A stretch of 64,000 nucleotides of DNA from Acidimicrobiia bacterium (GTDB lineage: Bacteria; Actinomycetota; Acidimicrobiia; IMCC26256; PALSA-610), in the NCBI GenBank assembly GCA_026002935.1, contig BPGH01000001.1:171965-235964 (forward strand). Reading direction: 5' to 3'. The notes beneath the pieces are model-generated. The model saw only the letters and a list, made by a program, of their open reading frames with translations, was not told the DNA's origin and did not search any database. The translations under genes and the position numbers were made by a program. Positions 24,040 to 57,903 of the stretch are shown here, in pieces. The stretch's first letter is position 1, and every line of letters begins with the position of its first letter.

Positions 24040-24057
24040 CGAGTGAATTCCCCTCCG

Positions 24058-26301: not shown

Positions 26302-26310
26302 GAGCGCCGG

Positions 26311-26610: not shown

Positions 26611-26620
26611 CGATCGCTCC

Positions 26621-27112: not shown

Positions 27113-27137
27113 GCCGCGCGCCCTCCCCGGCGGGCCC

Positions 27138-27620: not shown

Positions 27621-27633
27621 GGCTCGCTCCGCA

Positions 27634-31415: not shown

Positions 31416-31557
31416 GCCGCGCCTTTCGAACCCGGCCCGGTGGGGAGACGCGCGGAGTATACGCGGGGGCGATTTTCGGCCGCGGAATCGGGCGGGGGGC
31501 GCGAACCTCGCGTCCTGCGCCGGAAATACCGGCCGTGCGGCGGGCGTCGGGAGGGTC

Positions 31558-36865: not shown

Positions 36866-36869
<4 letters not shown>
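35337..36869 (-). CDS. nuoN: NADH-quinone oxidoreductase subunit N, operon 2 (14-gene set)
   Basis: MTVLAQALDAAVDTPRVDWLAIAPE...AAPFHMWAPDVYQGSPTPVVSFMG..., 510 aa. The ATG overlaps the nuoM stop (ATGA). Confidence 0.9.
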
Positions 36870-38409
<1,540 letters not shown>

Positions 38410-38413
<4 letters not shown>

Positions 38414-40431: not shown

Positions 40432-40435
40432 CCCG

Positions 40436-40753
40436 TCAGCCCCTCAGCGCGCTCACGTCGTCGGCCGTGACGTCCTGGCGCCGCCGGAAGATCGCCACGA
40501 TGATCGCGAGCCCCACCGCGACCTCCGCCGCGGCGACGACCAGCGTGAAGAACACGATCACCTGGCCGCCGATGTCGTCCAGCGCCTTGGCGAACGTGAC
40601 GAACGTCAGGTTGGCGGCGTTCAGCATCAGCTCGATGCACATGAACATGACCAGCGTGTTGCGGCGCACGAGCAGGCCGACGCCGCCGATCGTGAACAGT
40701 GCGGCCGCGACCACCAGGTAGTAGGTGGGGGTGATGTCGAGGGCCGCGATCAC
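40436..40753 (-). CDS. nuoK: NADH-quinone oxidoreductase subunit K, operon 2
   Basis: VIAALDITPTYYLVVAAALFTIGGVGLLVRRNTLVMFMCIELMLNAANLTFV...AAAEVAVGLAIIVAIFRR, 105 aa. Confidence 0.9.
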   Translation of the reverse strand: MIAALDITPTYYLVVAAALFTIGGVGLLVRRNTLVMFMCIELMLNAANLTFVTFAKALDDIGGQVIVFFTLVVAAAEVAVGLAIIVAIFRRRQDVTADDVSALRG

Positions 40754-41292
40754 GGCCGTTCCCCCTCGGCCGGGAGGCGGCGGCCGCTGCGGCGCGCGAG
40801 CACGACGCCGCCGACGACCGCGATCACCAGCAGCACCGCGGTGACCTCGAACGCCCAGATGTAGTCGGTGAACAGGGCGCGGGCGAGGGTCTCGACGTTG
40901 CCGCTGCGGCCGTCCTCGTCGAGCGGGCCGACCGTCGAGCGGGCCCCGGTCGCCCAGTCGTTGCCGATCACGACGAGCACCTGCACGAGCAGCACCGCCC
41001 CGAGCACGATCGCGGCGTAGCGCTGGAACGGATGCGGCTCGTCGAGGCGCTCGTGCTCGTCGACGCCGAGCAGCGTGATGACGAAGAGGAACAGCACGAC
41101 GATGGCGCTCGCGTACACGACGAGCTGGATGATCGCGACCAGGTCGGCGTCCTGCATCAGGAAGAACACGGCGACGGCCGCCATCGTGACGAGCAGGAAG
41201 AGGGCGCAGTGCACGGGGTTCCGGCCCAGCACGACCCCGAGCGCGCCCGCGAGCGCGCCGGCCGCGAGGACGAAGAAGAGCACCGCTTCCAT
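40750..41292 (-). CDS. nuoJ: NADH-quinone oxidoreductase subunit J, operon 2
   Basis: 180 aa, intact (MEAVLFFVLAAGALAGALGVVLGRNPVHCALFLLVTM...). Confidence 0.85.
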   Translation of the reverse strand: MEAVLFFVLAAGALAGALGVVLGRNPVHCALFLLVTMAAVAVFFLMQDADLVAIIQLVVYASAIVVLFLFVITLLGVDEHERLDEPHPFQRYAAIVLGAVLLVQVLVVIGNDWATGARSTVGPLDEDGRSGNVETLARALFTDYIWAFEVTAVLLVIAVVGGVVLARRSGRRLPAEGERP

Positions 41293-41879
41293 CAGTCCTG
41301 CGCCTGCCCCTTCTCGGGCGGCCGGACGCCGAAGCCGAGCTCACCGGACCAGCTCACCCGGCCCTCGTAGGACGCGTCGCCCGACGGCGAGGTGACGCGC
41401 ATCCACTCGCTCGTGTCGTCGTCCTCCCCGCCGAGCCACAGCTCCCACGGCAGGCGCCTCGCCCGGCCGTCGTCGCCGACGAGGAGCTCGTCCTTCGTGT
41501 AGATCGCGTCGTTGCGGTTGGTGAAGGAGAACTCGAACAGTTTCGTCTCGGTGATCGCCTCGGTCGGGCAGGCCTCGACGCACAGGTCGCAGTGGATGCA
41601 ACGCAGGTAGTTGATCTCGTAGACGAAGCCGTAGCGCTCACCGGGCGACACCGGCTGGTCGGGGGGGTTGTCGGCCCCGCGCACGTAGATGCAGCGGGCC
41701 GGGCAGACCCCCGCGCAGAGCTCGCACCCGATGCACTTCTCCATCCCGTCCTCGTAGCGGTTGAGGACGTGGCGGCCGTGCCGGCGCGCCGGGCGCGGCG
41801 CCTTCTCCTTCGGGAACTCGGTGGTGACCTTCTTCCCGTACTGGCGCAGGGTGACGAGGAAGCCCGACAGCCGGCCCAT
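41292..41879 (-). CDS. nuoI: NADH-quinone oxidoreductase subunit I, operon 2
   Basis: MGRLSGFLVTLRQYGKKVTTEFPKEK...CIGCELCAGVCP...CIHCDLCVEACP..., 195 aa. Confidence 0.9.
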   Translation of the reverse strand: MGRLSGFLVTLRQYGKKVTTEFPKEKAPRPARRHGRHVLNRYEDGMEKCIGCELCAGVCPARCIYVRGADNPPDQPVSPGERYGFVYEINYLRCIHCDLCVEACPTEAITETKLFEFSFTNRNDAIYTKDELLVGDDGRARRLPWELWLGGEDDDTSEWMRVTSPSGDASYEGRVSWSGELGFGVRPPEKGQAQD

Positions 41880-43093
41880 CAGCGGAACTCCTCGACGTGT
41901 TCGCCGGGCCGGGGCATGCACAGGTACAGGACGCCGAACGCGCCGAGCGCGGCGGCCGCAACGATCGGCGTGACGACCCACACGTTCCAGCCCTCCTCGC
42001 GTGCGACGACGAGGGCGGCCGACACGAGGACCCACAGGACGGCGACCTCGATGAGGTACTTCCACCCGAGCGCCATCAGCCGGTCGTAGCGCATGCGGGG
42101 CAGCGACGCGCGCACCCAGATCGTGCAGTAGAGGAGCGCGAGGACCTTCACGAGGAACCAGAAGACCGGCATCAGCCAGACGTTCACGACGTTGTCGGCG
42201 GCGAGGAAGCCGAGCCCCGGCCCCGACGGGCCGCCGAGGAACAGCGTCGTCGCGATCGCCGACATCGTGATGACGTTCATGAACTCCGCGAGGAAGAAGA
42301 TCGCGAAGCGGATGCCCGTGTACTCGGTGTTGAAGCCGCCGACGAGCTCCTGCTCCGCCTCCACGAGGTCGAACGGCGGGTGGTTGGTCTCGGCGGTCGC
42401 GGCGATCAGGAAGATCACGAACGGCACGAACGCGGCGGCCCAGTACCACTCGGTGGCGAACGAGGCCCACCCGTCCCACGCCTGCTCGTCCACGATCCCG
42501 CGCGTCGACAGCGTCCCGGCCTGGATCAGCACGCCGAGGACGGCGAGGCCGAAGGCGGCCTCGTACGACAGGAGCTGCGCCGTCGCGCGCACCGAACCGA
42601 GCAGCGGGTACTTCGAGCCCGACGCCCAGCCGGCGAGCATGATCCCGTACACGCCGAGGCCCGACATCGCGAGCACGAACAGCGCACCGACGGGCAGGTC
42701 GACCACCTGCAGGTAGGTCTCGTGGCCGAGGATCGAGACCCGGCCGCCCACGGGCACCACGCAGAACATCAGGAAGGCCGGCATGATCGACAGGTAGGGG
42801 GCCAGGCGGAACACGGGCCGGTCGGCCGAGCTCGGGATCGACTGCTCCTTGAAGAACAACTTGATGCCGTCCGCGAGCGTCTGCAGCACGCCGAACGGCC
42901 CGGCGCGGTTGGGGCCGATGCGGTTCTGCATGTCGGCGATCACCTTCCGCATGCCCCAGATGTAGAGCATCACCGCGACGAGCAGGAACGCGAACGCGAC
43001 CACGACCTTGATCGCCACGACGCCGAACACCGACCAGGTGATCTCGCCGCCGTCGAACAGCGGGTCGAGGGCGACCACGGGAACCCCGGTCAC
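41879..43093 (-). CDS. nuoH: NADH-quinone oxidoreductase subunit H, operon 2
   Basis: 404 aa, intact (...ADMQNRIGPNRAGPFGVLQTLADGIKLFFKE... and ...TAETNHPPFDLVEAEQELVGGFNTEYTGIRF...). Confidence 0.9.
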   Translation of the reverse strand: MTGVPVVALDPLFDGGEITWSVFGVVAIKVVVAFAFLLVAVMLYIWGMRKVIADMQNRIGPNRAGPFGVLQTLADGIKLFFKEQSIPSSADRPVFRLAPYLSIMPAFLMFCVVPVGGRVSILGHETYLQVVDLPVGALFVLAMSGLGVYGIMLAGWASGSKYPLLGSVRATAQLLSYEAAFGLAVLGVLIQAGTLSTRGIVDEQAWDGWASFATEWYWAAAFVPFVIFLIAATAETNHPPFDLVEAEQELVGGFNTEYTGIRFAIFFLAEFMNVITMSAIATTLFLGGPSGPGLGFLAADNVVNVWLMPVFWFLVKVLALLYCTIWVRASLPRMRYDRLMALGWKYLIEVAVLWVLVSAALVVAREEGWNVWVVTPIVAAAALGAFGVLYLCMPRPGEHVEEFR

Positions 43094-45771
43094 CGCAACG
43101 TCTCCACGCGCAGGTCGGTGACCGGCTGGCCCGTGTCGACGAGCAGCGCCGCGCCCGTGCCGTCGGCCGCGAAGTCGAGCGATGCGACGCCGGCCGGGAC
43201 CTCGGGGTCGGCGACGACGGGGTAGGTGAGGGAGCCGTGCGACGACACGAGCCGCACCTCGTCCCCGTCGGCGACCCCCAGTCGCGACGCGTCGTGCGGG
43301 TTGACGCGCAGCGACGGCCGCTCGAAGCGCTCGTGCAGCACGGGCGTCTCGGTGACGATGCGCCCACCGTCGTACAGCCTCCGCCCGCTCACGAGGCGCA
43401 GAGCGTACGCGTCACGCGCGGGCGCGGCGGCCCCGCCTGCCGCACCGTCCCAGACGTGCAGCGCGGGCGCGTCGGCGGCGCGCTCGCTCGCGGCGTGCGC
43501 GTGCTCGACCGCGTGCGCGGCCTCCTCCGGGTCCTCGCCGGGACCGGCCTCCGCCGCCGCGTCCGCGGCGCGGGCTCCCCGCTCGCCGCGGGCGCGCCCG
43601 CCGGGGCGGCGCCCCCGGCGCGGATCGGGTCCCACGAGGTGCCGGCGCCCTCCTCCGCCAGGATCGACAGGCCGCGGGTGCGCACGACGATCTCGCCGAG
43701 GTGCTCGCGCAGTGGGAGCACGACGCCGTCGCGCGCGCGCCGGACGAGGGCGGCGGTGGCGCCGAGCGCCGCCGGCGCCACGGCGGCGATCTCGTCGGTG
43801 ACCTCGTCGACCGTGGCGAGGTCGAAGTCGGCCCCGAGGCGGTACGCGAGCTCCGACGCGATGCGCCAGTCGTCCATCGCGGTGCCCTCGGGCGCGACGC
43901 GCCGCGCGACCCGCTGCACGCGCCCCTCGAGGTTGGTGACGGTGCCGTTCTGCTCGCCCCAGACGGTGCAGGGCAGGAAGACGTCCGCGCGCGCGGCCGA
44001 CTCCGACCGGAAGGCGTCCACGGCGACGACGAACGGCACGCCCTCGAGCGCGCGCCGGGCGAGCAGGGCGTCGGGGTGGTCGAGCAGCGGGTCGGCGCCG
44101 AGCAGCACGAGCACGTGGACGCGGCCCTCGGCCGCCGCCCGCAGGATCCCGTCGGCGTCGAGGCCGCGCCCCGCGGGGACACCGCCCCACCGCTGCGTGA
44201 ACCACTCGCGCCCGGCGTCGAGCGTGACGCGGCCGGGCAGGAACCCGGGGGCCAGCCCCATCTCGAGCGCGCCGTGGACGTTGCCCCGGCGCAGCGCGGA
44301 CAGGACCCGCACGTCGACCCCGTCGAGCGCCCCGAACGCCGCGATCGACCGCACCGTCGCGTCGGGCGCCTCCGCGACCGACGGCCGGCCGGCGACCACC
44401 ACGAGCGGGCCGCCGCGCTCGCGTGCCGTGCGCGCCGCGAGCTCGACGACGTCGGCCCCCACCGGCTCGCCCGGCACCCGGCGGGCGACGTGCGCCGCAT
44501 AGGGGGCCAGCGAGCCGCCGACGGGCGTGCAGTCGAAGAGCGGCACGCCGAGGTCCTTCGCCGCGCGGCGCAGCCGGAGGAAGAGGACCGGCACCTCCTC
44601 GCGCGGGTCGGGACCGAGCACGACGATCGCGCCCGCCCGGTCGCAGTCGTCGATCTCGGCACGCCGGACCCCGAGCACGACCTCGGCGGGGAGCCCGTCG
44701 CCCATCTGGCAGTCGACGTGGTCGGTGCCGATCACGCCCTTCGCGAGCCGCGCCCACGCGTACGCGTCCTCGTTCGTGCCGCGCGCGCCGCCGAGCACCG
44801 CGATCGCGCCCGGGCCGTGCATCCGGAGCACCTTGCGGATCTCGCCGGCCGCGGCGTCGAGCGCCTCGGGCCACGACACCTCCCGCAACTCGCCGCCTAC
44901 CCGCAGGTGCGGTTCGCGCACGCGGTCGTCGGCGTGCACCCAGTCGATGCCGTAGCGGCCCTTGTCGCACAGCCAGCCGTGGTTCACCGGGTCGAGGTCG
45001 ACGCCGAGGAGCCGAACGATCCGGTTCGACGACGACTGCACGGCACCGCGGCAGTGGACCGAGCAGGTCGTGCACGACGTCTCCGCGGTCGCGAGGTCCC
45101 ACGGGCGCGCCTTGAAGCGGTAGTGCCGGGCGAGCAGCGCGCCGACAGGGCAGATCTGCACGGTGTTGCCGGAGAAGTACGACTCGAACGGCTGCTCGGC
45201 GAAGTTCAGCACCTGCGTGCGGTCGCCGCGCGAGACGAAGTCGATCAGGGGGTCGCCGGCGATCTCCTCCGCGAAGCGCGTGCACCGCGCGCACTGGATG
45301 CACCGCTCGCGGTCGAGGAGGATCATGTTGGACAGCGGGATCGGCTTCTCGTAGTGGCGCTTCTCCTCCACGAAGCGCGACTCGCCGGGGCCGAACGCGA
45401 GCGTCTGGTCCTGCAGCGGGCACTCGCCGCCGCGGTCGCAGACCGGGCAGTCGAGCGGGTGGTTGATCAGCAGGAACTCCAGCACGCCTTCCTGGATCTT
45501 CTCGACCGCGTCGGTCCGGGTGCGCACGACCATCCCGTCGGTGACCGGCGTCGTGCACGCGGGCGGGAACCCGCGCACGCCCTCGACCTCGACGAGGCAC
45601 ATGCGGCACATGCCGACCGGCTTCATCCGCTCGTGCCAGCAGAAGCGCGGGATGTAGACGCCGTGCTCCTGCGCGACCTTGATGAGCAGCTCGCCCGGCC
45701 GCGCCTCGACGGTCTCGCCGTCGATCGTGACGCTGACGGTCTGGCCTGCTCCTTCGGCGCCTCGGTGGACG

Positions 45772-45775
<4 letters not shown>
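43090..45775 (-). pseudogene. nuoG: NADH-quinone oxidoreductase subunit G, operon 2; two frameshifts as assembled
   Basis: The GTG at 45775 (VTSTEAPKEQA) is in one frame. TVSVTIDGETVEARPGELLIKVAQEHGVYIPRFCWHERMKPVGMCRMCLVEVEG...HPLDCPVCDRGGECPLQD... is in ORF 43389..45626. The C-terminus (...ALRLVSGRRLYDGGRIVTETPVLHERF...DLRVETLR) is in ORF 43090..45609. Breaks lie near 45740-45745 and about 43560-43640. Confidence 0.85.
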
Positions 45776-47069
<1,294 letters not shown>

Positions 47070-47073
<4 letters not shown>

Positions 47074-47573
47074 GCGGCACCTCCCGCCCTCGCGCCCGAC
47101 ACCGTGCGCGGCGCGAGGGCGCCGCGCTTGTACGCGTCGACGACGTCCTCGGCGAGCTCCGGCGTGAGCCGCTCGTGGAACTCGTAGTTGACCTGCATGG
47201 CGGGGGCGCCGCCGCACGCGGCGATGCACTCGACCTCCTCAACCGTGACGTCGGGGTCGAGCGCGTACCGCCGCTCCAGGTGGTCGAGGATCTCGGGCCC
47301 GCCGGTCACGAGGCACGACACGTTCGTGCACACCGACACGACGAGCCGGCCGCAGGGGCGCAGCTTGAACATCGTGTAGAAGCTGCACGTGCCGAACACC
47401 TGCGCGGGGGTCACGCCGGTCAGCTCGGCGATCTGCTCCATCGCCTCCGGGCTCAGCCAACCGTGCTGGTCCTGCGCGAGGTGCGCGAGCGGGAGGATCG
47501 CCGACTTCGGGCTCGGGTAGCGCGCCACGATCTCCCGGGCGCGTGCGAGGTTCGCGTCGGTGAAGAAGCTCAC
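47070..47573 (-). CDS. nuoE: NADH-quinone oxidoreductase subunit E, operon 2
   Basis: 167 aa with the [2Fe-2S] ligand pattern [12 protein letters not shown]...CIAACGGAP. Confidence 0.9.
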
Positions 47574-48861
47574 CGGTCCACCTCGCCCATGATCGGGTCG
47601 ATGCTCGACACGATGGCGACCGCGTCGGCGACGAGCGTCCCCTCGGCCATCGGCTCGGCCGACTGGAGGTTGTAGAACGACGGCCCGCGGATGTGCATCC
47701 GCACCGGCCGGCTCGACCCGTCGCTCACCAGGTAGCAGCCGATCTCGCCGCGGGGTGACTCGACCGCGACGTACGTCTCGCCCGGCGGCACCTTGAACCC
47801 CTCCGTGAAGATCTTGAAGTGGTGGATCAGCGCCTCCATCGACTCGTCGATCCGGGCGCGCGGCGGCGGGGTCACCTTCTTGTCCTGCACGCGGTAGTCG
47901 CCGCGGGCATGCGCTCGACGCACTGGCGCACGATCTTGGCGGACTCGAGGATCTCGTAGAGGCGGATGCGGTACCGGTCGAAGGTGTCGCCGTTGGTCGT
48001 GTACACGACGTCGAAGTCGACCTCGTCGTAGGGCAGGTACGGCTGGGCCTTGCGGAGGTCCCACGGGAAGCCGGTGGAACGCAGGATCGGCCCGGTGATG
48101 CCGCGGGCGAGGCACTCCTGCGTGGTGATCACGCCGACGCCGACGGTGCGCTCGCGCCAGATGGGGTTCTCCGACAGCAGCTCGTCGTACTCGGCGACGC
48201 CGGCCTCGACCGAGTCGCAGGTGCGCAGCACGGCCTCCTGCCAGCCGTCGGGGAGGTCGGCCGCGACGCCGCCGGGCCGGATGTAGTTGCAGTTCATCCG
48301 CAGGCCGGTGATCGTCTCGAAGAGCCGCAGGCACTCCTCGCGCTCGCGCCAGCCGTACAGCATCATCGACACCGCGCCGATGTCCATGCCGTTGGTCGCC
48401 TGGAACAGCAGGTGCGACGACATGCGGTTGAGCTCGACCATCATCATGCGGATCCACTGGGCCCGCGGCGGCACCTCGACACCCAGCAGCTTCTCGGTCG
48501 CGAGCGAGAACACGAGCTCGTTGGAGAAGTTCGCGGCGTAGTCCATGCGGGTCACGTTGGTCGTGCCCTGCAGGTAGGTGAGCTCCTCGGCCGTCTTCTC
48601 CATGCCGGTGTGCAGGTAACCGATCACCGGCTTGATCCGCAGGACCTCCTCGCCGTCGAGCTCCATCATGAGCCGCAGCACGCCGTGCGTCGACGGGTGC
48701 TGCGGGCCCATGTTGATGATCATGGTGTCGCCGAGCTCGTCCTCCGGCCAGACGCCGCCGGTCATCACGAGCTCGCGCGTGCGCCGCGTGGCCCGCAGCT
48801 CCTGCGCGCCCTCGTCGGTGCGCCCCGCGAGGCGCTCCTCGTCCGCGTAGTCCCACGTCAT
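47570..48861 (-). pseudogene. nuoD: NADH-quinone oxidoreductase subunit D, operon 2; one frameshift as assembled
   Basis: [11 protein letters not shown]...[44 protein letters not shown]...[10 protein letters not shown] is in ORF 47872..49341. [36 protein letters not shown]...[14 protein letters not shown] is in ORF 47570..48856. The break is near 47899-47906. Confidence 0.85.
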
Positions 48862-49439
48862 CGCGGCGCCGGGTCCCCCTTGAAGGTGACGGGGACGCGC
48901 GCGACCGGGAAGTCCTTGCGCAGCGGGTGCCCCTCCCAGTCGTCGGGCATCAGGATGCGCGTGAGGTCGGGATGGCCCTCGAAGACGATCCCGAACATGT
49001 CGTAGACCTCGCGCTCGGGGAAGTTGCACCCCGGGTACACGGGCGTGAGCGACGGCACCGTCGGGTCGTCGGCCGGCACCTGGCAGATCACGCGGATGCG
49101 CCGGTTGCGCGCGTGCGACAGGAAGTTGGCCACGACCTCGAACCGCTCGAGCGGCTCGACGCCCTCGGGCCGCCAGCGGGAGCCGTCGAGCAGGTGGTCG
49201 ACGGCCGTGACGTCGACGCAGGACGTGAACTGCTGCTCGTCGCGCAGGAACGCGCCGACCTCGGCGAACACCGCGCGCCCGACGTACACGACGGCCTGCC
49301 CGTGCGACGTGACCGCCACCGCGCCCGGGAACCGCTCGCACACGGCGGCCGCGACCTCGTCGGCCGCGGCGGCCGCCGCGGGGGCACCCTCCCCGGCGCC
49401 GGGTTCGTGATCCCGTTCACGAGCGGTGTCGTCGGCCAC
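48858..49439 (-). CDS. nuoC: NADH-quinone oxidoreductase subunit C, operon 2
   Basis: ...[47 protein letters not shown]... The proposed start is the GTG at 49439. Confidence 0.8.
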
Positions 49440-49461
49440 GGCGGGTCCTCGGTCGGGTTCG

Positions 49462-49995
49462 TCAGGAGATCGGGACGGGCTCGCCCTCGAGCCGGATCCC
49501 CGCGCCGCCGCGGCGCTCGGCGCGCCGCCGCAGCAGCTCACCGGTGCGGATCCGGTCGTGGAGCGTGAGGATCCCGTGCATGAGCGTCTCGGGGCCGGGC
49601 GGGCAGCCCGGCACGTACACGTCGACCGGGACGACCTGATCGACGCCCTGCACGATCGCGTAGTTGTTGAACATCCCGCCGCTGCTCGCGCACACCCCCA
49701 TCGAGATGACCCACTTCGGCTCGACCATCTGGTCGTAGACCTGGCGCAGCACCGGCGCCATCTTCTGGGAGACGCGGCCCGCGACGATCATCAGGTCCGC
49801 CTGGCGCGGGCTCGCGCGGAACACCTCCATGCCGAAGCGCGCGAGGTCGTAGTGCGCGGCACCGGTGGCCATCATCTCGATCGCGCAGCACGCCAGCCCG
49901 AACGTCGCGGGGAACACCGAGTTGCGCCGGCCCCAGCGCACCAGGTCCTCCAGGCGCGCGGTGAGGAAGTTGTGGGGGATCGCGTCGAGGCCCAT
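49462..49995 (-). CDS. nuoB: NADH-quinone oxidoreductase subunit B, operon 2
   Basis: [43 protein letters not shown]...[13 protein letters not shown]...[11 protein letters not shown]..., 177 aa. Confidence 0.9.
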
Positions 49996-50448
49996 CAGGC
50001 CGCCTCCCCCGCGTCGGCGGGCGCGCCGGGCGTGAGCACCGGGCGCTTCGTGCGCAGCACCGGCCCGGGCTCGCGCCGGACGAGGCTGCGCACCGGCCCC
50101 CACTCGAGCGCGCCGACCGACAGCAGGTAGCCGAACGGCACGAGCAGCACCAGCACGAACACGCTCATCGCGACGAGGCCGAACAGCCCGAGGTCGCGGA
50201 ACACCGTCGAGAAGGGGTAGAGGAAGACGATCTCGACGTCGAGCACGATGAAGCTCATGCGCGACCAGGTAGAACTTGACCGGGAAGCGCTCGGGCGGCT
50301 CCTCCTCCGGCACGATCCCCGACTCGTAGGGCGCCTGCTTCGCCGCGTGCGGCCGGCGCGGTGCGAGGAGCTGCGACGCGACGAACGACAGCAGCACGAA
50401 CGCGACCACCAACCCGGCCATGACGAGGATCGGCAGGTAGTCGGCCAA
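49995..50448 (-). pseudogene. nuoA: NADH-quinone oxidoreductase subunit A, operon 2; one frameshift as assembled
   Basis: (TTG)[63 protein letters not shown] is in one frame. [46 protein letters not shown]... is in ORF 49995..50258. One extra nt lies near 50259. Confidence 0.85.
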
Positions 50449-50551: not shown

Positions 50552-51799
50552 TCACACCGACGCCGGCGCCATCCGCACGAGCTGCGACAGCACCTTGTAC
50601 GCCGCCTCGGCGGGGCCGACCTCGTCGGGGCGCAGCAGGTTCGCCATGATCCGCAGCACCCACTCCATCAGCGGGCGGCTGTGCATCCCGACCCGCACCA
50701 GCTCGCGCATCACCGCCGGGTTGCCGATCGCGCGCACGAACAGGCGGGCGGTCTTGAAGTAGAGGCCGTACACCTCCTCGAGGCGCTGCTCGTAGGTGCG
50801 CAGGGCGAGGCCGTCGCCGGTCCCGAGCGCGAGGTCGACCGCGTCGGCGGCGAGGCGCCCGGTCTCGTAGGCGAGCGAGATCCCCTCGCCGTTGAACGGG
50901 TTGACCGACCCGGCGGCGTCGCCGACGACGACGAAGCTCGGGCCGACCCGGGGGGTGACCGATCCGCCGGTCGGCAGGCGCCCGCCGGTGGGCGGACCGC
51001 AGGACGTCTCGGGGCCGATGCCCCAGGTGGCCGGCACGACCTCGCAGAACGCCTCCATCAGGCGCGACGTGTTGACCGACTTCCAGCCGGCGAACGTGGA
51101 CAGGAGCCCCACCCCCACGTTGACGGTGCCGTCGCCGACCGGGAAGATCCACCCGTACCCGGGCAAATGGTTCCCGTGGCGGTCGCGGATGTCGAGGTGG
51201 CTCTCGATCCACGGGTCGTCGTGGCGGGGGCTGCGGAAATAGCCCCGGATCGCCATGCCGAGCGGGTAGGTGCGGTCCCGGGCGGTGCCGAGCGCCCGCC
51301 CGAACCGCGAGTTCGCGCCGTCCGCGACCACCGTGTAACGCGCGGTGACCCGCTCGGTCGCACCGGAGTCGCCGTCGCGGACCAGCGCGCCGGTCACGAA
51401 ACCCCCGTCCACGACCGGGGCGACCGCCTCGGCGCCCGTGCGCACGGTCGCGCCCGCCTGCGCCGCCCGGGTGGCGACCATCCCGTCGAGGTCGCGGCGG
51501 CGCACGACGTACCCGTAGGACGGGAAGTCCGGGTGCGCCGGCCACGCGAGCTCGAGCGTCATGCCGTGCCCCATCGAGCGCAGGCCGTCGTAGCGCTGGT
51601 ACCGGGCCAGCTCGCCCGCGAGGCCCATGTCGTGGAGCTGGCGCACGGCGCGCGGCGTGAGCCCGTCGCCGCACGTCTTGTCGCGCGGGAACCGCTTCTT
51701 CTCGACCACGAGGACCCGGTGGCCCCGCGCCGCGAGCCAGTACGCGGCCGCCGCACCCGACGGTCCTGCGCCGACGACGAGCACGTCGTAAGTGCTCAC
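50552..51799 (-). CDS. Geranylgeranyl-reductase-family FAD-dependent oxidoreductase
   Basis: [51 protein letters not shown] is the dinucleotide-binding fold. [15 protein letters not shown] lies later in the protein. 415 aa. Confidence 0.8.
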
Positions 51800-51951
51800 C
51801 CGGCCATGATCACACGGTGTGAACCCCGTTTCCGCACCGGAAGCGACACAATGTGCCGACCACGCGGCCCGCGTGGTAGCAAGAGCGCGCCGGGTCCGAC
51901 GGTCGACCGGCCCTGCGCAGCCGTTCCGTTCGACGAGGAGCCATCGGGGCG

Positions 51952-52512
51952 ATGCCCGACATCGTTCGCAGCCTCGGGTTGGACATCCCCAACGTGTTGG
52001 GCCCGCTCGCCCCGGCCGGGCGGCTCATCTGGTCGTCGCTGCTGCTCGCGATCGGCACCGTCGGCGCGTTCGTCCTGATCCGCCGCCCGAAGCGCTCCGC
52101 GGAGCCCGCCACCTGGGCGGCGACGATCGCGGGCGCGATCGTCGTGTGGGCGCTGATGATCCTCGCGTACGGGGTCGTGCCCCACGAGTGGCTCACCTTC
52201 GCGAACGCCGAGCTCAACTGGGGCAAGGACACGTACTTCCTGCGCGAGGGGCAGTTCCTCGGCGGGCGCTTCCCGCCCTTCGACGTGCCCCGGTTCGTCG
52301 GCGCCGACATCGTCGCCGCGACGATGTACGTCGTGTTCGGCGTGCTGAACGTCTACCTGTTCTCCGCCTGGCAGAAGCGCAAGGTCGCCGAGCCGGCCAC
52401 GGCCGGTGAGGGCGAGGAGCCCGCGCCGCCGGTCACCGGGGGCTTCGCGCGCCTGCGGCGGCGCCGGGCCGGCGTCTCCGCGTACGGTCGTCCCGTCACG
52501 ACGAGCGAGTGA
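51952..52512 (+). CDS. Membrane protein of unknown function, first gene of the Rieske/cytochrome b cluster
   Basis: 186 aa with about three hydrophobic helices. GAGGAG lies upstream. Its stop overlaps the next start (GTGA at 52509-52512). Confidence 0.55.
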   Translation: MPDIVRSLGLDIPNVLGPLAPAGRLIWSSLLLAIGTVGAFVLIRRPKRSAEPATWAATIAGAIVVWALMILAYGVVPHEWLTFANAELNWGKDTYFLREGQFLGGRFPPFDVPRFVGADIVAATMYVVFGVLNVYLFSAWQKRKVAEPATAGEGEEPAPPVTGGFARLRRRRAGVSAYGRPVTTSE

Positions 52513-52931
52513 CCGCGATGGCGAGGACGGACGCGAACCCGCCGATGCCGGAGTTCGCGAGCGACTACGTGCTGGCCGAGGTCGACCCCGCCTGGCTCAC
52601 CTCCGCCGTCAAGCCCAAGCAATTCCTCCACATCGACCAGGCCGAGTGCATCCTGTGCGAGGGCTGCGTCGACATCTGCCCCTGGAAGTGCATCCACATG
52701 CTGTCGGTCGACGCCGTCGACGACGCCGTCAACGCCGACCGCCCCGGCGACGACCCCCGCGACCACGTCATCTTCGTCGTCGACGAGGACGTCTGCACCC
52801 GCTGCGCCCTGTGCGTCGACCGCTGCCCCACCGGCGTCATCATCCTCGGCAAGGTCACCGACGCCTGGCGCGACGGCGACCCCAACGCCCGCACCGACCG
52901 GCACGGCTACGCCTACGGCGTCCGCTTCTAG
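52509..52931 (+). CDS. 2x[4Fe-4S] ferredoxin-domain protein
   Basis: 140 aa with two CxxCxxCxxxCP motifs: CILCEGCVDICP and CTRCALCVDRCP. Confidence 0.8.
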   Translation: MTAMARTDANPPMPEFASDYVLAEVDPAWLTSAVKPKQFLHIDQAECILCEGCVDICPWKCIHMLSVDAVDDAVNADRPGDDPRDHVIFVVDEDVCTRCALCVDRCPTGVIILGKVTDAWRDGDPNARTDRHGYAYGVRF

Positions 52932-52952
52932 CCACCCACAAGGAGCACGTTC

Positions 52953-53747
52953 GTGGCCCGCAACGGCACCTCCAACGGAAACGGGAGCCGCCCGAAGGTC
53001 CTCGAGAAGGTCGGCGAGATGGCCCAGGCCGCCTGGGGCTCGCAGGCGATGAACTCGATCTTCCGGCCGGGCTCGGTGTTCCGCAAGGGCTACACCGACT
53101 CCCCGCGGAACCGCTCCTACGTGATCATGAACAACGTGCTGTTCCACCTCCACCCGGTGAAGGTGAAGCGGCACGCCGTCAAGGTGTCCTACACGCTCTG
53201 CCTCGGCGGCCTCTCGTTCTTCCTGTTCATCCTGCTGACCGTCACCGGCATCTTCCTGATGTTCTTCTACCGGCCGACGGTCGAGGCCGCGTACACCGAC
53301 GTGCAGACCCTCGAGACCGCCGTGTCGCTCGGCTCGCTCGTGCGCAACATGCACCGTTGGGCGGCGCACCTGATGGTGCTGTCGGTGTTCCTGCACATGG
53401 CGCGGGTCTTCTACCACGGCGCCTACAAGTCACCGCGCGAGTTCAACTGGGTGATCGGCGTGGTCCTGCTGCTGCTCACGCTGCTGCTGTCGTTCACCGG
53501 CTACCTGCTGCCGTGGGACCAGCTCGCGCTGTGGGCCGTGACCGTCGGCACCAACATGATGGGGTACACCCCGGTGTTCGGCGACAACGTCCAGTACGTG
53601 CTGCTGGGGTCGCGCCAGATCGGCAGCGAGACGCTGCTGCGGTGGTACGTGCTCCACGTGCTGATGCTGCCGTTCGTCGCCGTCATCTTCATGGCCGTCC
53701 ACTTCTGGCGAGTCCGCAAGGACGGCGGCATCTCCGGACCGCTCTAG
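52953..53747 (+). CDS. qcrB: Cytochrome b, N-terminal (b6-like) four-helix subunit
   Basis: 264 aa. Haem-ligand His pairs occur in RNMHRWAAHLMVLSVFLHMARVFY and LRWYVLHVLMLPFVAVIFMAVHFWRV. Also present: FTGYLLPWDQLALWA. GTG start 8 nt after AAGGAG. Confidence 0.85.
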   Translation: MARNGTSNGNGSRPKVLEKVGEMAQAAWGSQAMNSIFRPGSVFRKGYTDSPRNRSYVIMNNVLFHLHPVKVKRHAVKVSYTLCLGGLSFFLFILLTVTGIFLMFFYRPTVEAAYTDVQTLETAVSLGSLVRNMHRWAAHLMVLSVFLHMARVFYHGAYKSPREFNWVIGVVLLLLTLLLSFTGYLLPWDQLALWAVTVGTNMMGYTPVFGDNVQYVLLGSRQIGSETLLRWYVLHVLMLPFVAVIFMAVHFWRVRKDGGISGPL

Positions 53748-53762
53748 GAGGCGAGGGCTCAG

Positions 53763-54641
53763 ATGACCGAGGTCCCCGAACACCTCCTCCGCCGCTCGAA
53801 GGAGCGCCGCAAGGCGCTGGGCCTGCCCGTCGAGGGCGAGGAGCCGGAGGCGGCGGCGCCGGCCGCGCCGGAGCCGGCCGCGCCGGAGCCGGCCGCGGGC
53901 GCCGAGCCCGCGCCCGGCCAGCCCGCGGCCGCGGCCGACACCGGGGAGGCGATCACCGAGGACAAGGGCGGCGTGCCCGCGCACCTGCTCGAGCGCGCCC
54001 GCAAGCGCCGTGCCGCGCTCGGCGGCGGGGGCGGCGCGGAGGCGGGCGGCGGTGGCGCCGCGGCCCCCGCGGCCGCGGGCGGCGCGCCCGGGCGGGCCGC
54101 CGCGGCCACCGCGGTCGCGCCCGCGCCCGCGGGCACGGGGCCCGGCGGTCACACCCAGCGGCTGCTCACGGTCGTCAAGGCGGGATCGATCCAGCAGACG
54201 CGCGCCGAGGCCCAGGACAAGGTGCACACCTGGCCCCACCTGCTCGCGATCGAGTTCGCGGCGATGCTGTCGCTCACCGCGTTCGTGACGCTGTTCTCCG
54301 CCATCACCAAGGCGCCGCTGCTCGGGCTCGCCGACACGAACCAGACACCGAACCCGTCGAAGGCGCCGTGGTACTTCCTCGGGCTGCAGGAACTGCTCAC
54401 GATGTTCCACCCGATGGTCGCCGGCGTGACCATCCCGGGCATCGCGCTCGTGATCCTCGCCCTCACGCCCTACTACGACAAGAACCCGTCGACCAAGCCC
54501 GCCGACCGCAAGTTCGCGATCACGATGATGACCGTGTTCCTGATGCTGTGGGCGGTGCTCGTCATCATCGGCTCGTTCTTCCGGGGCGAGGGCTTCAACT
54601 TCGTGTTCCCCTGGAACGACGGCATCTACTTCGAGCTGTAG
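53763..54641 (+). CDS. Cytochrome b C-terminal domain (subunit-IV-like) with an Ala/Pro-rich N-terminal extension of about 140 aa
   Basis: 292 aa. The C-terminal half, HTWPHLLAIEFAAMLSL...PSKAPWYFLGLQELLTMF..., aligns to the PEWY region of subunit IV / the cytochrome b C-terminus. It has three TM helices. Confidence 0.8.
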   Translation: MTEVPEHLLRRSKERRKALGLPVEGEEPEAAAPAAPEPAAPEPAAGAEPAPGQPAAAADTGEAITEDKGGVPAHLLERARKRRAALGGGGGAEAGGGGAAAPAAAGGAPGRAAAATAVAPAPAGTGPGGHTQRLLTVVKAGSIQQTRAEAQDKVHTWPHLLAIEFAAMLSLTAFVTLFSAITKAPLLGLADTNQTPNPSKAPWYFLGLQELLTMFHPMVAGVTIPGIALVILALTPYYDKNPSTKPADRKFAITMMTVFLMLWAVLVIIGSFFRGEGFNFVFPWNDGIYFEL

Positions 54642-54650
54642 GAGCCCCGT

Positions 54651-55496
54651 TTGCCGATCGCCATCGTCATCCTCGTCATCCTCGCCCTCGCGGCGTTGGC
54701 GTTGTTCGCCACCGTCAACCGGCGGCGCGCGACGACGGGCACGCTCTCGCGCGAGACGCGGGCACGCGACGCGTCGGCGCCGGCCGCCGCGGCGGCCGAG
54801 CCCGGCACCGAGATCGAGGCGGCCGGGCGCGAGCGCGCCGAGGACACGAAGGAGCGGCTCGCGGGCGGCGTCCCCGCCCAGCGCGGTGGGACCGCCGTCG
54901 TCGAGTGGGAGCCGGTCGACGAGGAGGAGCTGGGCGTGTCGCGCCGGCAGTTCCTCAACCGGGGCATCCTCACCGTCACCGGGTTCTCCGCCGGGATGCT
55001 CGGCATCGGTGTGCTCGGCTTCCTGTGGCCGACCGGCGGCGGCGGCGGCTTCGGCGGCCGGATCCGGGCGCCGGGTTCGCTCGACGACATCCTCGCCCAG
55101 ATCGCCGCCGACAAGCAGCCGCTGTACGTGCCGGAGGCGAAGTCGTACCTGCAGGCGTACCCGTCGTCCGCGCTCGACGCGGCGAGGAAGGCGTACCCGC
55201 CGAGCATCGTCACCGGCATGGAGCAGGGGGTCACCGCGCTGTACCAGCGCTGCGTGCACCTGGGCTGCCGGGTGCCGTGGTGCCACTCGTCGCAGTGGTT
55301 CGAGTGCCCCTGCCACGGCTCGAAGTACAACGCCGTCGGCGAGAAGAAGGACGGACCGGCGCCGCGGGGCCTCGACCGCTTCGCGGTGATCGTCGAGGGC
55401 GGCGGCGTCACGATCGACACGTCGACCGTCTTCCAGGGCCCGCCGATCGGGACCGACACCACCAAGCAGCCGCAGGAAGGCCCGTCGTGCATCTGA
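54651..55496 (+). CDS. qcrA: Rieske [2Fe-2S] subunit
   Basis: 281 aa. Cluster boxes are CVHLGC and CPCHGS. An internal twin-arginine motif (SRRQFLNRG) follows an extra N-terminal TM helix. TTG start after AGGAG. Confidence 0.85.
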   Translation: MPIAIVILVILALAALALFATVNRRRATTGTLSRETRARDASAPAAAAAEPGTEIEAAGRERAEDTKERLAGGVPAQRGGTAVVEWEPVDEEELGVSRRQFLNRGILTVTGFSAGMLGIGVLGFLWPTGGGGGFGGRIRAPGSLDDILAQIAADKQPLYVPEAKSYLQAYPSSALDAARKAYPPSIVTGMEQGVTALYQRCVHLGCRVPWCHSSQWFECPCHGSKYNAVGEKKDGPAPRGLDRFAVIVEGGGVTIDTSTVFQGPPIGTDTTKQPQEGPSCI

Positions 55497-56935
55497 CGTC
55501 GAGCGCACCCCTCGCCGCCATCTGGCCCGGCAGCCTGCGCCAGTGGATCATCGTCCTCAACGTGGTCGCGCTGGTCGCGATCGGCGCGTACCTCGTGTAC
55601 AGCGCGTTCTCGCGGCGCGAACGCCAGCAGGAGAAGCCGGCGCCCAACGAGCAGAAGTTCCTCCCCGACGACGAGCTCGAGGGGCGCCGCCTCGAGCGGG
55701 TGCTCGGCTGGGCGCTGCTGTTCGTCAGCGCGTTCGCCGTGGTGCTGCTCGTCTACATGCTGCGCGAGCCGACGCGCCAGGGCGAGGCCGAGGAGTACTT
55801 CGCCGACGGCTCCGTCGAGCGCGGCCGCACCCTGTACGCGAACGCCAGCAGCGAGTACTACGACTCGGTCCTGTCGCTGCAGTGCGCGAACTGCCACGGC
55901 GCCGAGGGCGGCGGCGGCGCGGCGTCGACCGTCGTCGACCCCGACGGGCCGGGCGGGCAGCCCCCCGAGCAGGTCACCTGGCGCGCGCCGGCGCTCAACA
56001 CCGTCCTCCTGCGCTTCAGCGAGGAGGAGGTCAACCGCATCATCACCTACGGCCGGCCCGGCACCCCCATGCAGGCGTTCGGCGTCGCCGGCGGCGGCGC
56101 GGAGAACGAGCAGACGATCGAGGACCTCGTCGCGTTCCTGCGTTCGATCCAGCTCAGCCCCGAGGAGGCCCGCGAGCAGGCGCGCCTCGAGCTCGAGGGC
56201 GACCCGTCGGCCGAGGAGGGCACCGCGTTGCGGGCCGGCGCGCGCGGCGCGGCCGAGGTGCAGCTCGCGGACGCGCAACGCGCGCTCGACGACGCTCTCG
56301 TCGCCCTCGACGAGGCCGAGGCGGCGCTGGCCGAGGCGCTCGGCCGGCCCGGCGACACCCCCGCCGACGCCCTCGACGACGCCTGCACCGACCTCGAGGA
56401 GGAGGTGCGCGCCGCCGACACCGTCACCGAGGAGCAGCGCACCGCCGGCGAGGCGTGCCGCACCTTCCGGTCCGCGGCCGCCGCCGCCGCCGAGGCCGAG
56501 GAGGCCTACGAGTGGGCCCAGCGGTGGGCCGAGTTCCGCGAGGGCGTGAGCGACGGCCAGCTCCTGTTCGAGCTGCACTGCGCGCGCTGCCACACCCAGG
56601 GGTGGTCGACGTTCGACCCGACGCGCCCCGGCGGGACCGACCGGCTCGGGCTGCCGGGCGGCGGTGGCGGCGCCGGCGGAGGGATCGGCTTCAACCTGCG
56701 CGACGGCGCACAGCAGCGGCGCTTCGGCGAGGGTGAGTCCGGCCTCGCCGCCCAGATCGAGTTCATCAAGAACGGCTCCGACGAGAACCAGCCGTACGGC
56801 CGCGGCGGGATCGGGTCGGGCCGCATGCCCGGCTTCGGGCAGATGCTGACCGACGAGATGATCGAGGAGATCGTGCGCTACGAGCGCGAGCAGCTCGACG
56901 CCACGACCTACGACGTCGACGGAGGGGACGAGTGA
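55487..56935 (+). CDS. qcrC: Membrane-anchored dihaem cytochrome c
   Basis: 482 aa from the GTG at 55487, which overlaps the Rieske stop. It has two N-terminal TM helices and haem motifs CANCH and CARCH with downstream Met (GTPMQAF, GRMPGFG). A long Ala/Glu-rich segment lies between the two haem domains. Confidence 0.8.
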   Translation: MHLTSSAPLAAIWPGSLRQWIIVLNVVALVAIGAYLVYSAFSRRERQQEKPAPNEQKFLPDDELEGRRLERVLGWALLFVSAFAVVLLVYMLREPTRQGEAEEYFADGSVERGRTLYANASSEYYDSVLSLQCANCHGAEGGGGAASTVVDPDGPGGQPPEQVTWRAPALNTVLLRFSEEEVNRIITYGRPGTPMQAFGVAGGGAENEQTIEDLVAFLRSIQLSPEEAREQARLELEGDPSAEEGTALRAGARGAAEVQLADAQRALDDALVALDEAEAALAEALGRPGDTPADALDDACTDLEEEVRAADTVTEEQRTAGEACRTFRSAAAAAAEAEEAYEWAQRWAEFREGVSDGQLLFELHCARCHTQGWSTFDPTRPGGTDRLGLPGGGGGAGGGIGFNLRDGAQQRRFGEGESGLAAQIEFIKNGSDENQPYGRGGIGSGRMPGFGQMLTDEMIEEIVRYEREQLDATTYDVDGGDE

Positions 56936-57732
56936 GCGTGTTCGTGCTCGCCAGCAGCGCCGGCGAGAAGACGCTGTGGGACCCGACGATCCTCGGCGTC
57001 CTCGTCGTGCTGTCGGCGGTCGGGCTGTTCTGCGGGTCGGTCTACCTGCTCCTCGCGACGAACCTCGGCGCCCGCCTCGGGTTCCTCGTCGCCGGCGCGT
57101 GCCTCAGCGGCTTCATGGTGCTGCTGTCGTCGCTGTGGATCACCACCGCGACGCCGCTCAACAGCCCGAAGGGGCGGCCGGCCGAGTGGGAGGTGAAGGA
57201 GGTCGTCGCCGACCCCTCGGAGTCGGGGTTCGAGGCGGTGCGCACGATCTTCGAGGAGGGCGAGGCCCAGGACGCCGAGCAGCTCGCGCAGCTCCGCTCC
57301 GCCGTCGACACCGCGCTCGTGCGGGTCGAGCCCGAGGGCGGGGAGGAGCCGCCCGAGCAGCCGTTCGCGCAGTTCGGCTCCAGCAACGACTACCTCACCG
57401 AGTTCGAGGGCTACCGCACCTACGTGGTCGGCGGTGACGCCAAGAACATCTTCTGGCACGAGCCCCGCTACGCGGTGGTCGAGATCTGCCCCCGCCTCGA
57501 GGTGGAGGTCGCAGCGGGCGAGCGGCCGCCGCCGCCCGAGTGCGACCCGCTCGGCGGCACCGAGTTCGTGGTCATGCAGTACGACTTCGGCTCGCTGCGC
57601 CAGCCGCCGTGGATCTACTTCGGCTTCTCGGTGCTGACGTTCGGCCTGTTCCTGCTCGGCCTGCACTGGTACGAGCAGGACCGCCGGGAGCGCGCCGAGG
57701 CCGGTCAGCTCCGCCCGGTCCCGAGCTCGTAG
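56932..57732 (+). CDS. Membrane protein of unknown function (cluster-associated)
   Basis: 266 aa. It has N-terminal and C-terminal TM helices flanking a soluble domain. Its GTG overlaps the cytochrome c stop (GTGA). Confidence 0.55.
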   Translation: MSVFVLASSAGEKTLWDPTILGVLVVLSAVGLFCGSVYLLLATNLGARLGFLVAGACLSGFMVLLSSLWITTATPLNSPKGRPAEWEVKEVVADPSESGFEAVRTIFEEGEAQDAEQLAQLRSAVDTALVRVEPEGGEEPPEQPFAQFGSSNDYLTEFEGYRTYVVGGDAKNIFWHEPRYAVVEICPRLEVEVAAGERPPPPECDPLGGTEFVVMQYDFGSLRQPPWIYFGFSVLTFGLFLLGLHWYEQDRRERAEAGQLRPVPSS

Positions 57733-57741
57733 GAGCACACG

Positions 57742-57903
57742 ATGGTCCTCGCCCAGCAGCTCATCGACGCGAGCAAGGACGGCGGGCTCGCCTTCCTCGT
57801 GTTCGCCATCATGGTCTTCTGCTTCACCGCGTCGCTGTTCTACATGGACCGCATCCGCCAGCGTCGCGCCGAGCGCGACGAGCGGCGCGACCGCACGGGC
57901 TGA
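57742..57903 (+). CDS. Small (53 aa) single-TM protein, absent from the ORF track
   Basis: The ATG at 57742 lies 6 nt after AGGAG. It encodes MVLAQQLIDASKDGGLAFLVFAIMVFCFTASLFYMDRIRQRRAERDERRDRTG. TGA at 57901-57903. One hydrophobic helix is followed by a basic tail. Confidence 0.55.
   Translation: MVLAQQLIDASKDGGLAFLVFAIMVFCFTASLFYMDRIRQRRAERDERRDRTG

Follow-up and report, generated by a model that had tools for sequence, protein, structure and literature searches.

Kao & Hunte described in 2014 a clade of cytochromes b that carry the Qo motif APWY (PMC4122944). The clade is taxonomically mixed, its members are split and bear a CxGG motif, and none of them had been characterised by 2014. 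Planctomycetes are listed in it. The same paper counts Ilumatobacter (Acidimicrobidae) as one of the actinobacteria with a split form, and places these forms in one of two clades, APWY or PEWY-cytochrome c (PMC4122944). The APWY clade and subfamily G of Dibrova et al. are treated here as one because of shared traits, an identity stated by neither paper. For the cytochrome b6f complex, it has long been proposed that haem cn is fed by ferredoxin from the electronegative (n-) side of the membrane (PMC5600118). Here we analysed a 64,000-nucleotide stretch of DNA from an Acidimicrobiia bacterium (contig BPGH01000001.1, positions 171,965 to 235,964; hereafter the window), in which positions 51952–57903 carry eight genes for a Rieske/cytochrome b complex that includes a ferredoxin gene.

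In order, the eight genes encode a membrane protein (g1), a 2×[4Fe-4S] ferredoxin, a cytochrome b6-like subunit (b6), a subunit-IV-like protein (SUIV), a Rieske protein, a dihaem cytochrome c and two further membrane proteins (g7 and g8). The type of core, with a split cytochrome b and APWY, has been known since 2013–2014. The pairing of a ferredoxin with a b6-type complex, in hundreds of Acidimicrobiia and related Actinomycetota, seems to be undescribed. We found no description of the ferredoxin, g1 and g7 as operon members in the searchable literature; an earlier mention in subscription reviews is possible. On balance we judge it probable, from the sequences, that the operon encodes the menaquinol:cytochrome c reductase of this lineage and that the ferredoxin is its dedicated redox partner on the n-side.

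The ferredoxin gene (52518..52931, plus strand) matched Fer4 and encodes 137 amino acids (aa) with two complete CxxCxxCxxxCP motifs, at residues 44 and 93. The sequence-only reading of this DNA, made before our analysis, had placed its start at 52509 and coupled it to g1 by a GTGA overlap. Nearly all of the 120 closest homologues are 137 aa long and start with MA(R/K)(T/N)DANPP, so the start is probably the ATG at 52518 (MARTDANPP...) and the overlap probably an artefact of start-codon choice. The protein has neither a signal peptide nor a transmembrane (TM) helix and should therefore be cytoplasmic. It scored 42.2 bits against the NuoI model TIGR01971 (cutoff 113) and thus is not NuoI; the true nuoI genes are located elsewhere in the window. 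Among the solved chains of bc and b6f complexes in the PDB, none resembles the ferredoxin or g1. The labels found for the ferredoxin in databases, 'NuoI', 'PreA' and 'formate hydrogenlyase subunit 6' (JGI), are misleading.

A search with the ferredoxin returned cluster-level homologues, more than 2000 of them, and the best 120 were all at least 72% identical; few of these carried names, and those were labelled Acidimicrobiia. A collection with one genome per species contained at least 571 ferredoxin-encoding matches. We fetched 83 genome loci seeded by the ferredoxin, and in 76 of them the b6 gene lay immediately 3′ of the ferredoxin gene. The conserved order at the ferredoxin-seeded loci is a geranylgeranyl-reductase (GGR) gene on the minus strand, then g1-ferredoxin-b6-SUIV-Rieske-cytochrome c-g7, with or without g8, and then hemL and hemB, again on the minus strand. 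In the reverse survey, for which metagenome contigs were seeded by b6, a ferredoxin gene was found directly 5′ in 61 of the 62 loci with enough upstream sequence. Since the arrangement recurs in independently seeded loci, it is far beyond chance. It occurs across soil, freshwater and marine Acidimicrobiia. Among the ferredoxin matches of the genome collection, a few contigs are labelled Burkholderiales, Bifidobacterium or Gaiellales; we treated these as mis-binned and not as spread outside the class.

Per-protein statistics were taken from the 76 operon loci. The median identity to the window protein was highest for b6 (82%), followed by the ferredoxin (77%), SUIV (65%), Rieske (54%), g7 (44%), cytochrome c (41%) and g1 (38%). 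The ferredoxin is thus the second most constrained protein of the operon; of the 83 loci, 82 keep its two cluster motifs intact. This bears on a different explanation, namely that the complex is an ordinary b6c-type complex III and that a general soluble ferredoxin, with or without g1, merely rides in its operon while serving a MenJ-like reductase or a complex-I-like enzyme without NuoEFG. We regard this explanation as unlikely. Conservation close to that of b6 would be unusual for a general carrier, and the linkage to b6, with a spacing of 21 nt, is much stronger than that to any other neighbour.

We also searched 1.84 billion representatives exhaustively and without a profile. The ferredoxin family was narrow, with 40 representatives at E<=1e-30. 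More distant full-length ferredoxins, 42–47% identical (BLASTP), came from metagenome-assembled genomes of other unclassified Actinomycetota. In three such distant lineages (loci L084–L086) the order is the same: a TM protein, the ferredoxin, b6, SUIV, Rieske, cytochrome c and a g7-like protein. These operons adjoin genes for a haem-copper oxidase (aa3- or cbb3-type) and for Ccs/Ccm cytochrome c maturation. The synteny of ferredoxin, b6, SUIV and Rieske, which the sequence-only reading had proposed to survey in related groups, therefore proved to be near-invariant in the genome loci, the metagenome loci and the three distant lineages. Class-wide as it is, in hundreds of genomes, it is neither annotated nor described as a qcr variant.

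The nearest neighbour outside the operon speaks in part for a general carrier. A divergent GGR-family flavoprotein gene (50552..51799, minus strand) precedes the operon in the window, and a gene of this GGR/MenJ family is found 5′ of the operon in 66 of the 76 Acidimicrobiia loci. The window protein scored 240 bits against TIGR02032 (cutoff 158.8); its best match is the menaquinone reductase MenJ, at 315.6 bits and below the cutoff of 700. The GGR of the archaeon Methanosarcina acetivorans needs an adjacent ferredoxin, which adds to that side. At L084–L086, in contrast, no GGR gene lies within the 8-kb flanks, and the ferredoxin gene is nevertheless kept between g1 and b6. The linkage of ferredoxin and b6 is thus older and tighter than any other relation in the neighbourhood.

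Several observations do not sit easily with the ferredoxin as a fixed subunit of this complex. Six loci of the ferredoxin survey are stand-alone second ferredoxin genes with an upstream region of their own, lying upstream of DUF427 or pirin genes. In three genomes (locus pairs L001/L002, L008/L012 and L013/L007, with the ferredoxin coding sequence at 10001–10414 or 7001–7414 in each locus) the stand-alone and operon copies are 100% identical as proteins and 98.8–99.8% identical as DNA, whereas between genomes the ferredoxin copies differ by up to 26%. The match extends exactly from the ATG to the stop codon, with no relation between the flanks. This pattern looks like concerted evolution by gene conversion confined to the coding sequence. 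The identity within genomes means that the same protein is made from a second, separately controlled locus. A second copy fits a carrier that dissociates or diffuses no less well than it fits a fixed subunit; it would also fit a demand for more copies. The protein-identical copies in other contexts also count in favour of a general carrier; their absence from the vicinity of GGR genes counts against one that serves a MenJ-like reductase.

The single b6-seeded locus without a ferredoxin gene, L155 (1263–3161), points in the same direction. Here b6 begins 35 nt after g1 (154 aa) and keeps its N-terminal extension. SUIV is only 202 aa long, with a much shorter N-terminal extension. L155 may be a natural ferredoxin-less variant that lends itself to comparison. 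It shows that the ferredoxin is not structurally indispensable, as would be expected for a general carrier, and also that g1 is not merely a ferredoxin anchor. Structure prediction adds a further reservation. The AlphaFold2 (AF2) monomer of the ferredoxin is only moderate (pLDDT 66.5) and has a generic ferredoxin-fold core, and Foldseek with this model recovered only generic ferredoxin cores (TM ~0.35–0.4). The conserved N terminus and C terminus (RHGYAYGVRF) were modelled as disordered in isolation, which would fit folding on a partner.

The b6 gene (52953..53747, plus strand; 264 aa) matched PF00033 (Cytochrome_B) with 164 bits and is followed by the SUIV gene (53763..54641, plus strand; 292 aa, 3 TM helices), which matched PF00032 (Cytochrom_B_C) with 38.6 bits. 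With these two adjacent genes, cytochrome b is split in the b6/SUIV manner, as the sequence-only reading had it. Residues 78–264 of b6 align with residues 30–215 of the spinach and cyanobacterial proteins. The alignment keeps both His pairs, i.e. the four ligands of haems bL and bH, and the C-terminal GGISGPL. LCLGG of b6 aligns with spinach YCLGG including Cys35, the attachment site of haem cn/ci, and CLGG is present in 158 of 159 loci; this cysteine predicts a haem ci on b6. Among the NCBIfam models, b6 scored 310 bits with ExtP (cutoff 290), 216 with b6 (cutoff 325) and 118 with QcrB_actin (cutoff 500).

A side result of these scores concerns naming. No ext operon is present, yet b6 passes the cutoff of an equivalog whose title is 'selenite/tellurite reduction operon b-type cytochrome ExtP'. 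The NCBI pipeline would probably misname this b6 across the Acidimicrobiia.

SUIV scored 56 bits with ExtQ (cutoff 150). Its Qo motif is indeed APWY; aligned with chicken cytochrome b it falls on PEWY, Pro-Glu being replaced by Ala-Pro. APWY is found in all 132 resolved loci. With APWY, the split form and CxGG, and with ExtP as the best NCBIfam model serving as a proxy, the core of the window complex would belong to the APWY clade. SUIV also retains the Glu in WPHLLxxEF. We take this to be the haem-ci ligand region of the Firmicute proteins, beside the position that corresponds to Phe40 (compare QcrC of Bacillus and PetD of Chlamydomonas), and by this analogy the Glu points to a working Qi site.

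Both subunits are extended on the n-side. The basic N-terminal extension of b6 comprises ~48–57 residues on the cytoplasmic side, contains FRPGSxFRKGY and has a median charge of +5; FRPGS is present in 155 of 159 loci. Neither the ExtP profile, which begins at residue 58, nor the alignment with solved b6 proteins, which begins at residue 78, covers this extension. SUIV has an N-terminal extension of ~150 residues (53763–54200) that is of low complexity and rich in Ala, Pro and Glu. It includes two copies of a basic motif, VPxHLLxRxKxRRxALG, and a motif of the PxHLLxRSxxRR type was found in 112 of 140 loci. The net charge of the ferredoxin, in contrast, has a median of −10 (146 loci). This difference in charge is our reason for suggesting that the ferredoxin docks there, with the SUIV motif as a candidate docking helix for the acidic ferredoxin.

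We propose the following mechanism. The core would be b6f-like, consisting of b6 with haems bL and bH and a covalent ci, SUIV with its APWY Qo site and a mobile PetC-like Rieske protein. The complex would run a Q cycle on menaquinone (MK), namely MK-9(H6-H8), and its membrane-anchored dihaem cytochrome c would pass electrons toward a haem-copper oxidase. The ferredoxin would act on the cytoplasmic side, as an extrinsic subunit bound to the complex or as a carrier that docks tightly, where the basic n-side extensions of b6 and SUIV, and perhaps the tail of g1, would hold the acidic protein. Its two clusters could then form an electron port between the low-potential chain (bH/ci, Qi site) and the cytoplasm. 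The sequences show the gene content, the motifs for cofactor binding, the packing of the operon and the near-invariant co-occurrence of the ferredoxin and b6 genes; we infer physical association, docking site, electron exchange and direction alike. A second route of electron entry or exit through the ferredoxin, as the sequence-only reading had suggested, is plausible.

Electrons might take this route in two directions. Inward, reduced ferredoxin would deliver them to haem ci and on to menaquinone, and the complex would contain a built-in ferredoxin:quinone reductase; we lean towards this direction, tentatively. Outward, quinol-driven bifurcation would reduce the ferredoxin, as has been proposed for the Rieske/cytochrome b complexes of anammox bacteria. 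By analogy this might apply here too, but we think it unlikely. For the anammox complexes it has been argued that a high-potential Rieske protein in a menaquinone organism calls for a very low-potential bL and a low-potential acceptor on the n-side (PMC12954380). That the Acidimicrobiia possess a complex III with a built-in ferredoxin coupling the Q cycle's low-potential chain to the cytoplasmic ferredoxin pool, in whichever direction, is a rather doubtful proposition at present.

The Rieske gene (54651..55496, plus strand; 281 aa) matched PF00355. At its N terminus the protein has a TM helix, which a cytoplasmic loop follows; then come a Tat-like SRRQFL motif, another TM helix and the cluster domain with the boxes CVHLGC and CPCHGSKY. 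Its best PDB matches were PetC of b6f complexes and two Kuenenia Rieske proteins, not actinobacterial QcrA, and it scored only 22 bits with QcrA_actin (cutoff 275). Box II, CPCHGS[KQR]Y, is conserved in all 107 resolved loci, and its pair of Ser and Tyr is associated with Rieske potentials of ~+300 mV (PMC12954380). The rule predicts the potential only roughly (PMC12954380), which is a further caution against the mechanism proposed above.

The cytochrome c gene (55487..56935, plus strand; PF13442 and PF00034) encodes 482 aa with two CxxCH motifs, at residues 133 (CANCH) and 365 (CARCH). A long acidic linker joins the two domains, and the protein is anchored by two TM helices, both N-terminal. 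The sequence-only reading had called this subunit an actinobacterial-style dihaem protein. The two haem motifs bear out the second half of this description; the first half did not hold, with a QcrC_actin score of 18.7 bits (cutoff 200) and no match to QcrC, cytochrome c1 or cytochrome f in the PDB.

APWY also bears on the possibility that the complex normally works in reverse, with a high-potential periplasmic donor reducing menaquinone or ferredoxin at the expense of the proton-motive force. Some Acidimicrobiia oxidise Fe(II), and a ferredoxin on the n-side would be the natural end point of such an uphill path. Kao & Hunte moreover linked APWY, and PPWY of Acidithiobacillus, to reverse operation (PMC4122944). 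The habitats of the operon, which spans soil, freshwater and marine Acidimicrobiia, do not fit this. The aa3- and cbb3-type oxidase genes beside it in the distant lineages and the complex I genes beside it in the window indicate a forward respiratory context, and the annotated parts of the window contain no genes for a lithotrophic donor. We therefore regard normal reverse operation as highly improbable.

The three remaining proteins, of 186 (g1), 266 (g7) and 53 aa (g8), gave no Pfam or NCBIfam family match, permissive Pfam scans included, and sequence searches with g1, g7 and full-length SUIV against the PDB returned nothing usable. The g1 protein (51952..52512, plus strand) has three predicted TM helices and a basic C-terminal tail that is predicted to be cytoplasmic. 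A g1 homologue lies directly 5′ of the ferredoxin gene in 74 of the 76 genome loci, and g1 is weakly recognisable in the distant loci L084 and L086. The sequence-only reading was thus right that a 3-TM protein and a dicluster ferredoxin, neither a standard bc or b6f subunit, are attached to the operon. We also considered natural fusions of g1 and ferredoxin as evidence and rejected them. P0205, P0142 and P0223 were read as frameshifted assemblies and P0007, P0009, P0021 and P0081 as miscalled starts; P0137 was ambiguous.

In the g7 protein (56932..57732, plus strand), an acidic extracytoplasmic domain of ~155 residues lies between two TM helices at the N terminus and one at the C terminus. Homologues occupy the same slot in 60 of the 76 genome loci, some of which are truncated, and also in L084–L086. 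In L085 the extracytoplasmic part of the g7-like protein (11783–12808) contains a biotin/lipoyl-attachment-like domain (Pfam E=1.2e-5). The operon ends with g8 (57742..57903, plus strand), a single-TM protein that was detectable in 37 of the 76 loci despite its shortness. In L002 and L084 its place is taken by small open reading frames (ORFs) of 71 and 41 aa, respectively. Of the 'two small membrane proteins' at the end of the cluster in the sequence-only reading, only g8 is small; g7 is not.

Membrane proteins without a known family, such as g1 and g7, would also suit a role in biogenesis. The ferredoxin and g1 might provide electrons or thiol reduction for the attachment of haem ci or for the assembly of the Rieske cluster. 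The haem-ci cysteine is kept in nearly all loci, the operons of L084–L086 stand beside cytochrome c maturation genes, and to our knowledge no CCB-type haem-ci maturation system has been described for Actinomycetota. Dicluster ferredoxins, on the other hand, are not known as haem-lyase or Rieske assembly factors, and assembly factors rarely approach the conservation of the catalytic subunits, as the ferredoxin does. The conserved charge complementarity with the n-side extensions also suggests a lasting interaction. Taken together, a role in biogenesis appears very unlikely to us, and we retain the ferredoxin as the probable dedicated n-side partner of the reductase.

All eight plus-strand ORFs were present at the expected coordinates in the window, which has a G+C content of ~72%. 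Their lengths and tight packing, with gaps from −10 to +21 nt, agree with the sequence-only reading, as does their orientation: the other likely genes of the window lie mostly on the minus strand. We compared the proteins with Pfam, NCBIfam and PDB chains, and predicted TM helices from hydropathy. Five of the eight proteins gave family matches in Pfam and NCBIfam (dicluster Fer4, Cytochrome_B, Cytochrom_B_C, Rieske and cytochrome c). The spacing is 5 nt from g1 to the ferredoxin gene, 21 nt (containing AGGAG) from there to b6, 15 nt from b6 to SUIV and 9 nt from SUIV to Rieske. The Rieske and cytochrome c genes overlap by 10 nt, the latter starting with GTG at 55487. The cytochrome c and g7 genes share a GTGA overlap (56932–56935; −4 nt), and g8 follows g7 after 9 nt, with AGGAG 8 nt 5′ of its ATG. 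AGGAG stands shortly 5′ of the start codon at several junctions of the operon.

A scan of 51.5–58.3 kb found no promoter-like site and no terminator-like site between the genes, a result that is uninformative at 72% G+C; terminator look-alikes occurred within coding regions only. A single operon of eight genes is the best explanation of this arrangement. In ~20 more distant Acidimicrobiales loci (L028, L033, L066–L083 and others), a Rex/CRP-type palindrome TGTGA-N6-TCAC(G/A), with one or two mismatches to the operator TGTGA-N6-TCACA, lies 5′ of the operon, and in L084 and L085 a rex-like gene is found just 3′ of it. We do not claim such an operator for the window, where only a site with three mismatches is present (51818–51835).

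Upstream of the MenJ-like gene, a canonical 14-subunit nuo operon occupies ~35337–50000 on the minus strand (nuoF, G, H, J, L and N were identified), and hemL, hemB and hemC lie downstream of the eight genes. Complex I, the MenJ-like gene, the complex III-like operon and the haem synthesis genes form one conserved block, which is also seen in L002 and L003. The quinone of cultured Iamiaceae is MK-9(H6/H8), and this fits a complex that oxidises menaquinol next to a side-chain reductase.

A second complex-I-like gene set was found at ~21021–31808 on the minus strand. It comprises nuoA, B, C, D, H, I, (J, K), L, M and N and is of the 11-subunit type; nuoE, F and G are missing between D and H, and the NADH-oxidising module is lacking. 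In the ORF reading its nuoD appeared split over two reading frames. Complex-I-like enzymes without NuoEFG are thought to take electrons from ferredoxin. By analogy, the operon ferredoxin might serve the 11-subunit enzyme as well, and the presence of this nuoABCDHIJKLMN-like cluster is one more point in favour of a general carrier. Other parts of the window are unrelated to the operon. They include type II/IV secretion (pilus-type) ATPase and platform genes at ~11736–17184 on the minus strand (T2SSE, T2SSF and MshEN domains) and, beyond these, an acetyl-CoA-synthetase-like gene (17873–19855) and an M48 peptidase gene (10468–11718).

Acidimicrobiia are among the commonest Actinomycetota of soil, freshwater, oceans and activated sludge, and their complex III is not of the mycobacterial bcc type that serves as the model of the phylum. 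The current labels (ExtP; NuoI, PreA and formate hydrogenlyase subunit 6) hide the operon in databases. Exchange of electrons between ferredoxin and haem ci/cn is a long-standing question for b6-type complexes. If the ferredoxin is a subunit or dedicated partner, these bacteria, cultured strains included, would offer a non-photosynthetic test system for it. If the inward route is true, the complex would offer, in a natural and isolable form, the ferredoxin:quinone reductase activity whose existence in b6f during cyclic electron flow has long been debated.

The core resembles b6f of cyanobacteria and chloroplasts, with which it shares the split into b6 and SUIV, Cys35, the four His ligands, GISGPL and a PetC-like Rieske protein with CPCHGSxY. 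Instead of cytochrome f, the operon encodes a dihaem class-I cytochrome c. Homologues of PetG/L/M/N were not recognised in it, APWY replaces PEWY, and the quinone is menaquinone and not plastoquinone. The long n-side extensions of b6 and SUIV, the operon-encoded ferredoxin and the three extra membrane proteins are further differences.

The Firmicute b6c complexes (QcrABC of Bacillus, PetCBDA of Heliobacterium) resemble the window complex in oxidising menaquinol and in having a split b6/SUIV, haem ci and a c-type cytochrome in place of cytochrome f. Unlike it, they carry PDWY, SUIV is fused to cytochrome c in Bacillus, and the operons include no equivalent of the ferredoxin, g1 or g7. Firmicute Rieske proteins have a low potential. 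QcrCAB of actinomycetes (Mycobacterium, Corynebacterium) belongs to the same phylum, does the same job of passing electrons from menaquinol through cytochrome c to aa3, and also has a dihaem cytochrome c. It differs by an unsplit, long QcrB with PDWY. The cluster is distinct from QcrCAB, as the models of all three of its subunits fail here. The sequence-only reading was therefore correct in setting the layout apart from qcrCAB; it overstated the split APWY form, which had already been catalogued in 2014 for deep-branching Actinobacteria, an Acidimicrobiia strain included (PMC4122944).

With ExtO/P/Q of Geobacter, the window complex shares the split cytochrome b, APWY and CxGG, and b6 passes the cutoff for ExtP. 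In Geobacter, the ext cluster (extHIJKLMNOPQS) lacks a ferredoxin and encodes a porin, multihaem cytochromes and a rhodanese-like protein. In the window, SUIV remains below the ExtQ cutoff, and no multihaem, porin or rhodanese genes are found near the operon. The b6 extension, g1, the ferredoxin, g7 and the dihaem cytochrome c are features of the actinobacterial form.

For the ferredoxin itself, PsaC/PscB and NuoI/NdhI are comparable, as small 2×[4Fe-4S] proteins; like these, it would sit on the cytoplasmic face and wire a complex to soluble partners. NuoI, NdhI and PscB are among its sequence or fold matches, which are weak and generic, and the N- and C-terminal extensions are peculiar to the operon ferredoxin family.

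A b6-type core that is joined by an n-side iron-sulfur module has its counterpart in the anammox complexes Kuste4569–4574 and Kustd1480–1485, where this module has been proposed to exchange electrons with bN/cN (PMC12954380). These complexes also combine a Rieske protein of the high-potential type with a menaquinone organism (PMC12954380), and Kuenenia Rieske proteins were among the best PDB matches of ours. In the anammox complexes, a large oxidoreductase that binds FAD/NAD(P) and contains ~4 FeS clusters forms this module, and the electropositive (p-) side carries multihaem or HAO-like proteins. The place of the module is taken here by a dicluster ferredoxin of 137 aa without a flavin- or nucleotide-binding domain, next to a dihaem cytochrome c and in mostly aerobic hosts. 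Entry or exit of electrons through a cytoplasmic FeS protein has so far been proposed for a Rieske/cytochrome b complex only in anammox bacteria, and the family in Acidimicrobiia would provide a second and simpler example.

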